This document shows, piece after piece, positions 4,547 through 50,991 of a stretch of DNA of 57,433 bases; the stretch's first letter is position 1, and each line of letters starts with the position of its first letter. The notes below the pieces were generated by a model. It saw nothing but the letters and a program-made list of their open reading frames with translations, had not been told where the DNA came from and did not search any database. The stretch lies in the IMG/VR virus record IMGVR_UViG_3300007512_000043, positions 1 to 57,433 of that record, one strand, 5' to 3'. The position numbers were made by a program, and so were the translations under genes. Origin of the DNA: a virus. Its lineage: Duplodnaviria; Caudoviricetes.

Positions 4547-4900
4547 ATGTCTATTATTAGACTGATAGCAGGGCTTCTCAAGGCCGTCCCAGTTTTGGGG
4601 CGGCTTTTTTCGAGACTCGCTGATGAGAAGAAGGAGCAGAAAGCACAAAAGAGATATGAGGAAAAACTGGATTTTATTGACAATGCTGTTGATAAGTATC
4701 GTCGGGCCGGGGTGCGTGACGGGGATGAAGCTAAACAACGTGAAGGAACTGACGGAGCACCCGCAGTTCCCAAGCGCCGCTCACGCCGCACCAGAGTGGA
4801 CGGAGGCAGCCCTAAGAAAAGTAGCAGAACTGGAGTATCACCTAGAAAGAAGGTGAAAACTTCAAAGCGGAAGCGCCGTAAGCCCAAGTCTTCCGGCTGA
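4547..4900 (+). CDS. Putative inner-membrane spanin-like protein (Rz-like)
   Basis: N-terminal hydrophobic/amphipathic segment, then a charged helical region; contains an out-of-frame lipoprotein ORF. Confidence 0.4.
   Translation: MSIIRLIAGLLKAVPVLGRLFSRLADEKKEQKAQKRYEEKLDFIDNAVDKYRRAGVRDGDEAKQREGTDGAPAVPKRRSRRTRVDGGSPKKSSRTGVSPRKKVKTSKRKRRKPKSSG
4656..4856 (+). CDS. Putative outer-membrane spanin-like lipoprotein (Rz1-like), embedded in 4547-4900
   Basis: MRKNWILLTMLLISIVGPGC: basic N-terminus, hydrophobic core and Cys (imperfect lipobox); different frame inside the Rz-like ORF. Confidence 0.45.
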   Translation: MRKNWILLTMLLISIVGPGCVTGMKLNNVKELTEHPQFPSAAHAAPEWTEAALRKVAELEYHLERR

Positions 4901-6334
4901 AGGGCTGTCTGAAATTTCTAGGTCTGAGGCCATTTCCCCTATAAGCGCATAGCTAAGGGAGTCAAAGCTATGCTTGTTGTCATCGTTAATCACATACTGC
5001 CCGGCACTTTTCCCCCTTCGAAGGAACCTAAGCATATCAATTGTCCTGAAGCAGTGGGCGCTAATGTGAAACCTGTTCTGCATTAACAGGTCCTTTATCA
5101 GCTTCACCCTCTGCCTTACAGAGCCTGAGAACTTTGGTGCCCCGATGAGGTTAATTTTACCACCACTGGATGCAGCAACAACCCTGTGGTCATAGGTATT
5201 ACCGGCGGCTCGGTACCTGACCATTGATGACATGTCCGACCAATGTGTCCACCTTATTGGTTTTCCTACCTGTTCCTCCAGAATCTCAATCTTATCAAGC
5301 GCCTCCCCGGTGAAGTCCTCAAGGGAGACATCTGCATGAAGCACGACGAGTTCATCGAGGACTGCCCACCTTGTGCCGCTCATTGTTTGAACCTTTTCCA
5401 TTATATGGAATGCGTGGTTTCTGTCTCCCAAGTCCCATCCTCCTATTAGTTCAGTACAGCTTTCGGAGGGCAAAATTACCTCCCATTCGCTTTCAACGGG
5501 TGATTCAGCATCACCGATGACGTGGGTTTCGTACTTAAAAACCTTGCCGAAATGGGAGTCTGTCGATGATGCGGTCCATTTTCCCAGCACATATCTGTCA
5601 TAAAGCTCAGGGTCTGGCCTGAATGTGGCAATCAAATCCTTCCTGTCGTAGTCGGATAGGTACGGGTTGTCATGTATCATTGCCTCTATGATCTGGAATT
5701 GCTCAGCGTATTCAGGGTCGGGATGGTCTTCCTTGAATGGCTCATCGTACCAAAGCTTGTAAATCCAGCTACTCGTTCCCTCTTCCGCAGGGTTAGTGTC
5801 CCCGATCCACTGATGCCTGTGGTAATCCAGCCCGGGCAGTCGAAGCTGCCCCTTGCTGATCGAGAAAACGCAGCTATCTTTGAAGTTTGATAGCTCGGAA
5901 AAGAAGATCATACTGAATCTAGTGCCCTTTATCTTCTCCTCAATATCATGATCTACGTCCAAGGAATGCAGTTGTATCTCGGTTTCCCCGTCGTGCATAT
6001 TCCTGATTTTCATGTAGTTCATCTTGGTCACACCGTCCACCTTTGGCCTTACGGTGACTTCAAACCCGTCCAGATTCTCCTCCCACTCAGGCACGATAAG
6101 GTCTGTTAGGTCTGACCAAACGCCTGATTTAGCGTTCCTAATGGTCTTCGTGAAGATTCCCACCCTTCCGCTTTTGGTTTCCCAGCAGTGCCGGACGAGC
6201 CTGTGCAATACTCCGATAGTCTTACTGGAGTATCTTGGGCCTGTCACCAGCAGGTAACGCTTATTGCAGTTGAATATCTCAAGCTGCTTTGGGCTGATTG
6301 AGGGGTACCAGCTCCCACTAGCATCTAGCGGCAT
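4862..6334 (-). CDS. terL: Terminase large subunit
   Basis: Q motif (ISPKQLEIF), Walker A-like GPRYSSKT, Walker B-like MIFFSE, GDTNP motif, 'DNPYL..Y', 'RYVLGKW', nuclease GGWDLG and C-terminal 'HSFDSLSY'. Confidence 0.88.
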   Translation of the reverse strand: MPLDASGSWYPSISPKQLEIFNCNKRYLLVTGPRYSSKTIGVLHRLVRHCWETKSGRVGIFTKTIRNAKSGVWSDLTDLIVPEWEENLDGFEVTVRPKVDGVTKMNYMKIRNMHDGETEIQLHSLDVDHDIEEKIKGTRFSMIFFSELSNFKDSCVFSISKGQLRLPGLDYHRHQWIGDTNPAEEGTSSWIYKLWYDEPFKEDHPDPEYAEQFQIIEAMIHDNPYLSDYDRKDLIATFRPDPELYDRYVLGKWTASSTDSHFGKVFKYETHVIGDAESPVESEWEVILPSESCTELIGGWDLGDRNHAFHIMEKVQTMSGTRWAVLDELVVLHADVSLEDFTGEALDKIEILEEQVGKPIRWTHWSDMSSMVRYRAAGNTYDHRVVAASSGGKINLIGAPKFSGSVRQRVKLIKDLLMQNRFHISAHCFRTIDMLRFLRRGKSAGQYVINDDNKHSFDSLSYALIGEMASDLEISDSPSAGRLGLTALPL

Positions 6335-47926: not shown

Positions 47927-47956
47927 AAAAAATAGGGAGGCCCGAAGGCCTCCCTA
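47927..47956 (-). terminator. Rho-independent terminator ending the early/TIGR operon
   Basis: Minus strand TAGGGAGGCC-TTCG-GGCCTCCCTA-TTTTTT: 10-bp stem with a cUUCGg loop. Confidence 0.88.
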
Positions 47957-48053
47957 CCCAAGCAATGTGAGCAACACAACAAACAGAGGGAAATACTACG
48001 AAACCCCTGTCGCAGGCACACATTATCCAACCAGTAGGCACCTAGGCAAGCCC

Positions 48054-48431
48054 TTATTTGCTATTCTTTTTACTGAAGAACTTGTTCCTCAGTACGGCCA
48101 TCTTGACCGAATGTTCAGCGGTTCCTGTCCTAACCGCATTCGTCCTTAACCATTCCTCAGTCAGCCCCAGCTTCTTGAGTGATGCTGCGACATCCACCTT
48201 CTTGGCTCCTGTTGGCCTAATGCTGAAGACCAGCCTTGGGTCATCCCCGTTTGAGGCTGGCTCAACCTTGGGCCCCTTCTTCACAGGGGTCCTGTTCTTC
48301 TTCCTGAGCACAGGCTCAGGTTGCTGCTCTTGCAGTGAGGCAGACACAAGCCTTGCCTCTTTCATCGTCCCGACCAAGCCAATCAAATCGGCTAGGTCAT
48401 TGCCTCTAGCATGTATAATAACGGTATACAT
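48054..48431 (-). CDS. Hypothetical basic protein downstream of the array
   Basis: AGAAAGGAA RBS upstream; 125 aa. Confidence 0.65.
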   Translation of the reverse strand: MYTVIIHARGNDLADLIGLVGTMKEARLVSASLQEQQPEPVLRKKNRTPVKKGPKVEPASNGDDPRLVFSIRPTGAKKVDVAASLKKLGLTEEWLRTNAVRTGTAEHSVKMAVLRNKFFSKKNSK

Positions 48432-48470: not shown

Positions 48471-49367
48471 CTTAACGCTCTGCTGGATTGGTGCTCTCTC
48501 GTATTTTGACTCGTTCTGATTATATGGTACTCACATTATTGATGACTCGCTCACTCAGTATGGTTCTCTTATTTTTAGTGACTCGCTCTTGCAGTATGGT
48601 TCTCTCTTTCGAAGTGACTCGCTCTATCATATTGGTTCCACTCATGGACAGTGGCTCGTTCGTCGGATCTGGTTCTCACTTTTTTAATGACTCGTTCGGA
48701 ATGACTGGCTCTATCGGGTAATATGACTCGTTCGGGGTGCGGGGTTCTCTCAAATAGTATGACTCGTTCGGTTCTAATGGTTCTCTCCTATTCGTTGACT
48801 CGCTCCGTATCTCTGGTTCTCTCGATGTATGTGACTCGTTCGTTCATAGTGGCACACTGCTGCTGCATAACTCGTTCGGGGATGATGGTTCTGCTTATGA
48901 TCTTTGACTCGTTCTGCTCCAATTGATTCTCTCAGGTCACATGACTCGTTCTATTCATTTGGTTCTCTCCTTGGTACTTGACTCGTTCATTACCAGTGGT
49001 GCTGTTCTGTAGTAGTGACTCGTTCCAGTCTGATGGCTCTCTCGAATATGGTGACTCGTTCAACTTTCTTGGTTCTCTCAAGTTAAATGCCTCGTTCAGT
49101 AGGGGTGGTTCTCTCTTATACAATGACTCGTTCTCAGTCTTTGGTTCTCTCAGCCAAGATGACTCGTTCGCGTATACTGGTTCTCTCAGTAGGCATGACT
49201 CGTTCGACCAAGATGGTTCCCTCAACAACTTTGACTCGTTCTAGTTCTCTGGTTCTCTCGGAATGACTGACTCGTTCTGGACTAATGGTTCTCTCGAAAA
49301 CGATGACTCGCTTCTGCCTTCTGGTTCTCTCAAGACCTATGACTCGCTCGGCAATCAAGGTTCCCTC
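48471..49367 (-). repeat. TIGR-like (tandem interspaced guide RNA) dual-repeat array, ~24-25 units of 36 bp
   Basis: Plus-strand unit TGACTCGTTC-N8-TGGTTCTCTC-N8. 24 copies of the first repeat (48507...49340) and 25 of the second (48489...49358), with variable 8-mers between. Adjacent to a Nop/IS110-like gene. Confidence 0.88.
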
Positions 49368-50113
49368 TATTGGCCGGGCTTATTGTATTCCGCTATTATT
49401 TTTTCAGCATCCCAGCCTAGCTTTAGCTTGTCACTAACGTAGTCTGTTGGAATGCCGAATGCGTCAGCGAAGTCTTTCTGCGATATGTAGATAGTCTTCG
49501 TCGAGTGTCTGACTACGGGCTCCTTGTTGTCGTCGCCTGTCGGAATGTTGGGAACATATGTGTAACCCTGCTCCACCACCAGCCTATCAACCTCCACATA
49601 GTTTGGCGGGACATCGAACCCAAAGGATTGTTCAAGGGTCCAGCCCTTGTTCTTCCTCGCTATTATCGTTTGGTACTTTGCGAACAGCGGGAACGGGTAG
49701 GCCCCGTCCTCAATCTGTCGCATAAGTTCCCTAACTGAACCCCCTTCCAGCACCTCGCCTCCGTTAGGAAGCCTCAGCCTCAGGTTCTCTTCAACCACCG
49801 GAGTGACATGATCGAGACACTTGTCAGGGGTAATGTCGTTGCCGGGTATCAGATCGAACAGGCTTACAACCTCATGCTTATCAATAGCAAAGAACTCCCG
49901 CTTGTCGCTGACCCTCTTGCTTGCCAGTGCCGAGTGTATCTTAGACTCAATGAAGTTGGCATCATCAACCTCCTTTGCGTAGATACATTCGAAGGGGGAA
50001 GGTACGTTCGTGTCAAACAACTGCTTCATCCTCCTCTCCAAGTTGCCGGTTTGCCCTATCTTCACAACGCACGGCATTGATGCGTTCGTAACTGCGTATA
50101 TTATACCGTTCAT
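49367..50113 (-). CDS. GIY-YIG superfamily nuclease (T5orf172/Mug113 domain) with C-terminal repeated HTH-like motifs
   Basis: 'GIIYAVTN..MP.VVKIGQT.NLERRMKQL....VPSPF...IESKIH..L...RV...REFF'; C-terminal 'KGWTLEQ' and 'FGIP...KLKLGWDAE'; GAGGAG RBS. Confidence 0.85.
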   Translation of the reverse strand: MNGIIYAVTNASMPCVVKIGQTGNLERRMKQLFDTNVPSPFECIYAKEVDDANFIESKIHSALASKRVSDKREFFAIDKHEVVSLFDLIPGNDITPDKCLDHVTPVVEENLRLRLPNGGEVLEGGSVRELMRQIEDGAYPFPLFAKYQTIIARKNKGWTLEQSFGFDVPPNYVEVDRLVVEQGYTYVPNIPTGDDNKEPVVRHSTKTIYISQKDFADAFGIPTDYVSDKLKLGWDAEKIIAEYNKPGQ

Positions 50114-50122
50114 TTTATCTCC

Positions 50123-50200
50123 TCAGTCGTCTGTCAGTACCAAGTAATAGAAATACAAGGTCATTACCAATGATGCGAATGCCAGTATCATGAGAATCAT
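50123..50200 (-). CDS. 25-aa single-TM peptide (not in ORF track)
   Basis: MILMILAFASLVMTLYFYYLVLTDD. ATGA overlap with the tas stop codon; its own stop overlaps the RBS of the next gene. Confidence 0.5.
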   Translation of the reverse strand: MILMILAFASLVMTLYFYYLVLTDD

Positions 50201-50991
50201 GCCGCCTTTATATGGTGCACATGGCCCATATGCGCTATGGGATAAGGCAACGGCGGGTCTGTCTTGTAGTGCTCACGGTATGCCGTCTCATGCCAGTGCG
50301 CCAAGAACAGCTTGACCGCATATCGCTTGGCTCTGGCGTGAATGTGGCCCGGCGGCAGCTTGCCAACCGAGTAGTGCTTGTATGCCTCGGTGTTCTTTCC
50401 GACCCGCTTGGCACCCTCATCTGCCTGAGACTTGTACATGAGTACGCTGTTGTTTGCAGTCTCAAGCACCTTGCGTTGTTCATAGTACTGACCATAGATG
50501 TCCTTGTCCCTTGACTTAACCTTCACGAATGACTCACCTATCTTCCAGCACAGTGTCTTTAGGCTGGCGTTCCAAGGGCGCTTCTGTCCCTTGCCCCACT
50601 TGCACGTTGGGTCCTGACCTGCGTACCTCCAGATGTGTCCGACAGTAGGGGCCTTGGTGATGTCGATATGAGCAAGAAGGCCAGCCGCAATCACAGGGCC
50701 GATCCCGCATATACCCATAGACCACTGCCCCACTGGGTCAGCCTTCGCATACCTGTTCAGCGACCTCTTGATGTTGTGCTCAAGGTCTTCGTTGACTTCA
50801 CCAACCCACTCAAGCAATGAGCTTGGCTCGTTTGTGCCTGCCAAGCTTCTCACCTGTGCTGCTGCCCTTATTCTGCTATCTTGTATCTGATAGTATGTGT
50901 CCACTAGGAACCTAGCTTCATCTGATGAGAGCCTTGAGCTCGCATCAAGCAGGTCCTTGTCCAGTTTTATTCTCTCTCTTCCTTCGCTCAT
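50197..50991 (-). CDS. tasA: TIGR-associated Nop-domain protein (TasA-like; IS110 C-terminal-like fold, no RuvC/HNH)
   Basis: Helical N-terminus ('LVDTYYQIQDSRIRAAAQVR'), 'GICGIGPVIAAGLLAHID', 'IWRYAG', 'PWNASLKTLCWKIGESFVK', 'YYEQRK', 'HIHARAKRYAVKLFLAHW'. No DEDD RuvC domain; adjacent to a 36-bp dual-repeat array. Confidence 0.82.
   Translation of the reverse strand: MSEGRERIKLDKDLLDASSRLSSDEARFLVDTYYQIQDSRIRAAAQVRSLAGTNEPSSLLEWVGEVNEDLEHNIKRSLNRYAKADPVGQWSMGICGIGPVIAAGLLAHIDITKAPTVGHIWRYAGQDPTCKWGKGQKRPWNASLKTLCWKIGESFVKVKSRDKDIYGQYYEQRKVLETANNSVLMYKSQADEGAKRVGKNTEAYKHYSVGKLPPGHIHARAKRYAVKLFLAHWHETAYREHYKTDPPLPYPIAHMGHVHHIKAA

Follow-up and report, generated by a model that had tools for sequence, protein, structure and literature searches.

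A T5orf172 nuclease gene between tasA and the TIGR array of a marine phage: a probable homing-endonuclease-like insertion

Background

Does a nuclease gene that lies between tasA and a TIGR array belong to the RNA-guided system that surrounds it, or is it a passenger? The question is raised by a 57.4-kb metagenome-derived virus record, which was analysed over its full length (57,433 nucleotides, hereafter "the window"). A first-pass annotation of this DNA favoured an effector recruited in trans by a nuclease-less TasA, which would be a new TIGR-Tas subtype, and gave as its alternative a homing-endonuclease-like gene that had inserted at this position.

Both readings have models among known systems. 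In the Tas proteins TasH and TasR an HNH or RuvC nuclease is fused in cis. In T4-like phages, I-TevI and the Seg proteins are made up of an N-terminal GIY-YIG-type domain, a linker and a C-terminal DNA-binding domain with helix-turn-helix elements, and such GIY-YIG homing endonucleases are encoded by free-standing genes between conserved phage genes. Genes of the T5orf172 type have been reported to form one class of homing endonuclease genes in phages, whose DNA-binding domains can be exchanged (Barth, Dunham & Seed 2023, PMC10448857). The main texts of PMC12045711 and of the TIGRFinder preprint mention neither GIY-YIG nor T5orf172, though their supplementary neighbour-gene tables might list cases, and GIY is not mentioned in 10.64898/2026.08.11.744272.

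Organization of the locus

All features of the locus lie on the minus strand. The first is tasA (50197-50991), which encodes a nuclease-less TIGR-associated protein of 264 aa and was identified by its ORF call, a match to PHROG 4285 (E 3e-51) and the profile matches to 9mty_A and TasH described below. It is followed by a small hydrophobic ORF of 22 codons (50123-50191), found by reading the sequence and called the "peptide" in the first-pass annotation; by a GGAG site nine bases ahead of the next start codon; and by the T5orf172 (GIY-YIG superfamily) gene (49367-50113), an ORF of 248 aa with an ATG start. The dual-repeat TIGR array comes next (48490-49367; 24 units of 36-37 nt by repeat analysis), then an ORF for a protein of 125 aa without a Pfam or PHROG family (48054-48431), and finally a strong terminator-like hairpin (47930-47959) with 13 pairs and a T run behind it, which was found by consensus scan only. 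The first edge repeat of the array occupies 49359-49367 and the TAG stop codon of the nuclease gene 49367-49369, with one base (49367) common to both, exactly the 1-nt overlap that had been described at first sight.

Consensus scans of the minus strand found no terminator-like site from tasA down to the hairpin at 47959-47930. Because no such site intervenes, and because the array of relatives stands right after tasA without a separate leader, tasA, the nuclease gene and the array are probably carried on one transcript. The earlier suggestion of a single transcript with no separate leader fits these observations, though a scan of this kind does not prove that the transcript is single.

The record is metagenome-derived and repeats such as those of the array can mislead assemblers, so a chimeric assembly could in principle have joined the nuclease gene to the TIGR locus. 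However, contigs from four runs (X4, X5, X6 and X8), marine metagenomes from four studies, span 49211-49870 and 49750-50347 and show at most one difference from the window there. The contig spans that bridge the junctions are 49314-49765, 49211-49870, 49750-50347 and 49953-50226. The contigs of the four runs show no alternative joint and no empty (nuclease-less) form, although contigs can hide rare variants, and a copy of the nuclease protein that is 94% identical was found in another, separate data source. Since both junctions are bridged by independent contigs, the order tasA, nuclease gene, array is real and stable in this phage lineage, and the chance that it is an artefact of assembly is negligible.

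The nuclease

Residues 3-87 of the protein match T5orf172 (PF10544; E 1.9e-16, 60.8 bits against a cut-off of 20) over model positions 1-98 of 101, and the same residues match MUG113 (PF13455; E 1.2e-13, 51.9 bits). The T5orf172 match reached 63.1 bits in a search of the whole record. With PF10544 above its curated cut-off, the initial identification of a GIY-YIG (T5orf172) gene is confirmed, and family model, conserved residues and fold agree in placing the protein among the T5orf172 nucleases. In an alignment of 16 full-length family members (alignment A1), K18-I19-G20, R28 and E73 show no variation and Y6 hardly any. To judge from known GIY-YIG enzymes (PMC10448857 and PMC8263062 among the sources), these would be the positions expected for GIY-YIG-type catalysis, with Y6 as the Tyr of the first motif, R28 as the Arg and E73 as the metal-binding Glu.

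The structure model of the nuclease (pLDDT 84) consists of an N-terminal nuclease domain, residues 1 to about 95, and a C-terminal helical, putative DNA-binding domain, residues about 110-248, with a pLDDT of 80-94. The model resembles T5orf172 proteins in BFVD (86-107 columns, rmsd 1.2-2.8, E 3e-7). Foldseek comparison with the PDB returned no match at E<=0.001 for the nuclease model and none for the C-terminal domain; the similarity to the GIY-YIG domains of Slx1 and UvrC is weak (E 0.03-2). Alignment A1, used as a profile against PDB sequences, gave matches at chance level only.

The repeated "GW..E" motifs that had been noticed in the C-terminal part were located at G157-E161 and G233-E237. 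W158 and G233 are invariant in the 16 family members, and each motif forms a turn between two helices in the model. No Pfam family matched the C-terminal domain. Its look-alikes in the Atlas carry HTH_psq, NUMOD1 and I-TevI_DNA-bd domains, with scores of 0.79-0.81 and TM values of at most 0.50, and are leads only. The nuclease belongs to PF10544, whereas I-TevI and the Seg proteins belong to PF01541, and the resemblance that the C-terminal domain shows to I-TevI_DNA-bd and NUMOD1 is one of these weak leads.

The protein is built like those of the T5orf172 homing genes of ICP1, T5-like and other phages, in which the nuclease domain and a separate DNA-binding region, putative here, occupy opposite ends. 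Like the genes described in PMC10448857, it is encoded between phage genes, is sporadic among relatives and belongs to a family in which domains are exchanged. None of the Cys-rich zinc-fingers described there (CapR, DUF723 and DUF4397) is present in the C-terminal domain, which is helical and HTH-like, with the two GW..E turns. The site differs too: those genes lie in the neighbourhoods of essential genes (terminase, ribonucleotide reductase, capsid), whereas the insertion site in the window is a TIGR-Tas locus. The G+C content of the nuclease gene is 0.50, and both G+C and GC3 are the same as in the rest of the phage, so composition carries no signal on the origin of the gene.

TasA and the TIGR array

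A profile built from the window TasA and nine relatives matches 9mty_A (E 2e-20), TasH 21kl (E 2e-11) and the IS621 transposase (E 3e-3), and the matches cover the Nop/C-terminal part. The 9mty_A entry, which we take to be TasR, was deposited as a Transposase IS116/IS110/IS902 C-terminal domain-containing protein. The window TasA has a weak Transposase_20 match in Pfam and no Pfam nuclease family. It is thus a Nop-domain protein that is homologous to characterised Tas proteins and has no nuclease domain, as the first-pass annotation had held. Its homology is to the Nop/C-terminal part of TasH and TasR. In those proteins the nuclease is an N-terminal domain, conserved within the clade, whereas the nuclease of the window is encoded by a separate, non-conserved gene with a putative DNA-binding domain of its own.

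The array contains 24 loop repeats at a spacing of 36-37 nt (48507-49340), flanked by edge repeats (48490-49367). On the minus strand the edge repeat approximates GAGAGAACC and the loop repeat GAACGAGTCA. The spacers are 8-10 nt long, with two in each unit, and the dual repeat in units of about 36 nt is that of TIGR-Tas arrays. The same pair of edge and loop repeats follows tasA in eight relatives (L001-L008). The claim that a TIGR array adjoins the stop codon of the nuclease gene is borne out by this 24-unit dual repeat, which starts at 49367.

Comparison with the closest relative

The closest relative, L001, has a TasA that is 83% identical to that of the window. Its positions 4701-5867 align to window positions 51270-50113, a stretch that takes in sequence upstream of tasA, tasA itself and the 22-aa ORF at 50123-50191, with 75% identity over 1179 nt. 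The alignment resumes at 49383-49338 of the window (89% over 46 nt) and continues into the array and the downstream gene. By blastn and an alignment of the junctions, about 730 bp are absent from L001, corresponding to the nuclease ORF without its last five codons. The missing segment (49384-50122, minus strand, edges +/-10 nt) holds the GGAG ribosome-binding site and the nuclease ORF to about Tyr243. L001 keeps the 22-aa ORF and the first array unit, and the stop codon of the nuclease gene lies in sequence that L001 shares. The 4-nt sequence ATAA is found at both edges of the segment. The 125-aa gene also lies 3' of the array in L001; it occurs in relatives that have no tasA (L015, L020 and L021) as well.

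The window and L001 therefore differ by the presence or absence of a gene-sized segment at one site with conserved flanks, the pattern expected of a homing gene. The empty site is represented by a single comparator, L001, with flanks that are 75-89% identical, and gain is preferred to loss by parsimony across the relatives: all others are without the nuclease gene, so a gain in the window lineage is the parsimonious reading.

Absence of the nuclease gene from other tasA loci

If the nuclease were a working part of the TIGR-Tas system, TasA with its tigRNA would find the target and recruit the free-standing GIY-YIG protein to cut it. The window itself offers several points that agree with such an effector. 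The gene shares its orientation with tasA and the array, which flank it, no terminator-like site intervenes, TasA has no nuclease of its own, and the arrangement is stable in the contigs of four studies. The comparison with other loci argues against it. Among the 13 closest TasA loci in IMG/VR (41-83% identical), none has a relative of the nuclease (best tblastn E 0.096; nothing at E<=10 with the family HMM), and in most of them the array starts 13-70 nt past the tasA stop codon. The nearest of them, L001, has the same locus minus the nuclease gene.

The wider census gave the same result. The TasA alignment gathered 80 viral and 36 genomic loci, and 120 TasA loci were examined, compared with 20,096 tas loci and 6,685 arrays in print (TIGRSafari). 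When PF10544 was run over the whole of the 84 TasA-bearing viral records, no T5orf172 gene was found near tasA; the single match above the cut-off was separated from tasA by some 13 kb, and a single sub-threshold match by some 16 kb. In the genomic loci (L123-L158, 36 in all), T5orf172 was sought with the narrow family HMM and, among ORFs of the tasA-array gap, with Pfam. A downstream array was found in 89 of the 120 loci (74 viral, 15 genomic), and in 75 of the 89 it starts at most 150 nt from the tasA stop codon. Arrays were called by a periodic k-mer method in place of TRF, which by itself under-called them because the spacers vary. Six loci elsewhere have an ORF of at least 50 aa in the tasA-array gap. 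Four of these ORFs have no family, another resembles Mom (PF25680, E 3e-24), the sixth is weakly ParB_N-like, and none is a T5orf172 gene. Nor is PF10544, PF13455 or PF01541 fused to any of 110 longer TasA homologues.

The census thus gave no sign that the nuclease is conserved between tas and array. According to Faure et al. 2025 (PMC12045711), TasA has no clear protein associations except an occasional parB-like gene, tasParB. The window locus is like the tasParB-tasA operons in having a second gene in the tasA operon, there sometimes with the array between or beside the genes. It is unlike them in that the T5orf172 gene stands beside tasA in the window lineage only, with no case in the other 84 viral records. 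The conserved operonic association that marks a Tas accessory or effector gene such as tasParB was not found for the nuclease, whether by viral record (0/84), by gap ORF (0/6) or by nuclease-family locus (0/29, below).

Two further points weigh against recruitment. The nuclease has a conserved putative DNA-binding domain of its own, which would be superfluous in a recruited effector, and TasA alone has been reported to be functional as an RNA-guided repressor (10.64898/2026.09.09.750476). By analogy with that report, the window TasA is most likely an RNA-guided DNA binder or repressor by itself. A prediction of the complex of TasA (A2) with the nuclease (A1) gave no verdict (score 0.00 in two runs, controls not folded), and it counts neither way. 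The comparative data are compatible with a co-option specific to this lineage. Nevertheless, tasA of the relatives directly adjoins the array, the nuclease is sporadic and its family lives without tasA, and so the comparative half of what the first-pass annotation had named as grounds for abandoning its favoured reading is now in hand. We regard an effector acting in trans, and with it a new subtype, as highly improbable.

The nuclease family in other phages

Relatives of the nuclease were found by alignment-based scans of IMG/VR; a pattern scan with the single protein found none. The TasA HMM detected no tasA in the 29 loci of the nuclease family; in 17 of them the available sequence extends upstream from the nuclease gene by 1 kb or more. 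The family occupies seven different gene neighbourhoods (21 loci, including the window) in phages that have core genes in common with the window phage, namely those for a DnaB-like helicase, an AAA_24 protein and the 125-aa protein. One particular conserved gene has the nuclease gene after it in some of these phages, whereas in others the next core gene comes directly behind it. Sporadic spread and varied insertion sites are thus both observed, with seven neighbourhoods among 21 loci and no copy in the 13 closest TasA loci. The nuclease is also the protein best conserved between the window phage and L015-type phages (54% identity, against 22-49% for core genes). In four sequences (L041-L043 and P0018) the C-terminal domain of the nuclease is joined to DUF6998 and not to T5orf172.

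We conclude, with a probability of about 0.8, that the nuclease gene is a free-standing, T5orf172-type, homing-endonuclease-like mobile gene that was inserted, precisely, into the short spacer between tasA with the 22-aa ORF and the first TIGR repeat in one marine phage lineage. The identity of the domain, the indel relative to L001, the sporadic spread, the occurrence at other sites in phages without tasA and the exchange of the N-terminal domain are all observed. The inserted homing gene, which the first-pass annotation had offered as its second choice, is accordingly the reading that the indel, the spread, the seven neighbourhoods and the domain swap support. The evidence points to an ordinary nuclease-less TIGR effector, TasA, accompanied by a selfish passenger nuclease. 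The gene is best read as a further T5orf172 mobile gene, in an unusual place.

A homing gene at this site could work as follows. The C-terminal helical domain would bind a specific DNA site, which in related phages probably lies in or close to the empty tasA-array junction, and the N-terminal GIY-YIG-type domain would cut nearby. During co-infection the nuclease would cut the genomes of related phages that are without its gene, and recombinational repair against the filled allele would copy the gene, probably together with flanking tasA and array sequence. The nuclease may be expressed by read-through of the tasA operon from its own GGAG, with the array still transcribed through the gene. TasA and its tigRNAs would work alone, in the role of RNA-guided DNA binder or repressor that other TasA proteins have in published work.

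Possible benefits to the phage

Some features of the gene suit a useful gene as well as a selfish one. Its orientation within the operon, its own ribosome-binding site, its tight packing and its intactness also fit co-option, and the gene looks fixed, being present in the contigs of all four studies, which a useful gene would explain too. We consider it quite improbable that, in this one phage lineage, a homing-derived T5orf172 nuclease now serves by co-option as a cutting subunit separate from TasA, in which case TasA-tigRNA would bind and bend the target and the free nuclease would cut it. A milder version, to which we give no more weight, is that homing drags tasA and the leader-proximal spacers into related phages and so drives the spread of TIGR.

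A different benefit would come from a domesticated or stand-alone competition nuclease, kept for its value to the phage and independent of any guide RNA. It would cut the DNA of competing phages, satellites or the host at a site read by its C-terminal domain, and it would neighbour TIGR-TasA in a small island of inter-element conflict. The N-terminal domain matches PADLOC PDC-S57, a candidate single-gene defence family (E 3e-34), whose name we did not find mentioned in the literature searched. Judged from this match, a defence-like role of the nuclease is possible. The match takes in residues 2-98 only (model positions 5-102 of 212), however, and is thus confined to the nuclease domain of a gene that is set in a phage operon. 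The gene is intact, with conserved catalytic-type residues, in all contigs from the four studies. There is also precedent (PMC8263062 and PMC10448857) for homing-derived T5orf172 nucleases that were domesticated in phage-satellite conflicts, and Odn (Gp88) stands at the CRISPR-Cas locus of those ICP1 phages that have no CRISPR-Cas (PMC8263062).

The window nuclease is like Odn of the Vibrio phage ICP1 in being a homing-related T5orf172 nuclease at a place where the phage keeps an RNA-guided system. The two differ in that Odn, which has a RepA-like specificity domain, replaces CRISPR-Cas, whereas the window nuclease co-exists with the RNA-guided system. Seven neighbourhoods and a gene-sized indel form the pattern of a selfish gene, for which no benefit is needed, and a competition nuclease is in our view unlikely. 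This explanation overlaps with homing, because homing endonucleases also exclude the markers of competitors.

Inserts at tas loci

Had the nuclease proved to act in trans, it would have been the first in-trans effector of a TIGR-Tas system, defining a new subtype, and one half of a two-part programmable nuclease. A homing gene has consequences of another kind: homing elements at TIGR-Tas loci could reassort alleles of tasA, and spacers, among phages. The junction between tasA and the array tolerates inserts, which include the window nuclease gene, the Mom-like gene, the weakly ParB-like gene and small ORFs, and adjacency inside phage operons is poor ground for inferring function. Inteins and the window nuclease gene together suggest that homing elements often target the tas loci of phages.

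Intein-type families (LAGLIDADG_3, Hint_2, Intein_splicing or PT-HINT) were detected in 43 of the 110 longer TasA homologues; the main texts of two TIGR papers mention neither inteins nor LAGLIDADG. In one homologue (P0035), TasA is split exactly at the invariant Cys148 by about 420 residues, and the insert has Hint and LAGLIDADG domains in Pfam.

Organization of the tasA-array region

In a few relatives, genes other than the nuclease gene separate tasA from the array. Six such ORFs were found, at L145:4877-5428, L153:4882-5547, L048:4826-5098, L050:4847-5152, L099:5051-5425 and L125:2120-2398 (handles beginning with L denote loci of relatives). One of the six encodes a Mom-family protein (E = 3e-24). 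The product of another weakly resembles ParB_N and may be the published tasParB; the remaining four had no family match. The 90-aa gap ORF present in L048 is missing from its close relative L049. The tasA-array junction appears to be permissive for insertions.

A hydrophobic ORF of 22 codons begins 8 nt past the tasA stop on the minus strand of the window (50123-50191), and is also conserved in L001 (approximately 5789-5857), a locus whose TasA is 83% identical to that of the window. It is missing in L002-L005, L007 and L008, where the array directly follows tasA.

The side of tasA on which arrays lie also varies among the relatives. Arrays were detected on both sides of tasA in L055, L089, L105, L106, L108, L109, L125, L126, L137, L138 and L141, and only upstream of it in 12 further loci, in agreement with the TIGRFinder preprint, which reports that array position is flexible.

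Downstream of the array, the window carries a gene for a 125-aa protein (48054-48431, minus strand). In L015, a tasA-less, partly syntenic phage that has no TIGR locus, the same gene (L015:6302-6676) lies downstream of the nuclease gene with one small gene in between, indicating that the nuclease gene occupies a comparable genomic location in the two phages. This arrangement also occurs in L020 and L021, which are likewise tasA-less.

Domain variation in the nuclease and TasA families

In L041:148-987, L042:3001-3891, L043:4892-5782 and the protein P0018, the nuclease family's C-terminal domain (approximately HMM positions 94-245) is fused to an N-terminal DUF6998 (PF22522) in place of T5orf172, which amounts to a domain swap.

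Intein-type Pfam families (LAGLIDADG_3, Hint_2, Intein_splicing and PT-HINT) were detected in 43 of the 110 longer TasA homologues (proteins P0019-P0125). In P0035, an insert of about 420 residues carrying Pfam Hint and LAGLIDADG domains breaks the TasA sequence precisely at invariant Cys148. In the window, the codon for Cys148 lies at 50548-50550. The words "intein" and "LAGLIDADG" were not found in the main texts of the TIGR papers searched. Of the TasA homologues P0063 and P0066, one bears an HTH_3 domain toward the C-terminus (residues 394-434 of 506), and the other an HNH domain that is located mid-protein (residues 328-380 of 575), whereas the HNH of TasH is described as N-terminal.
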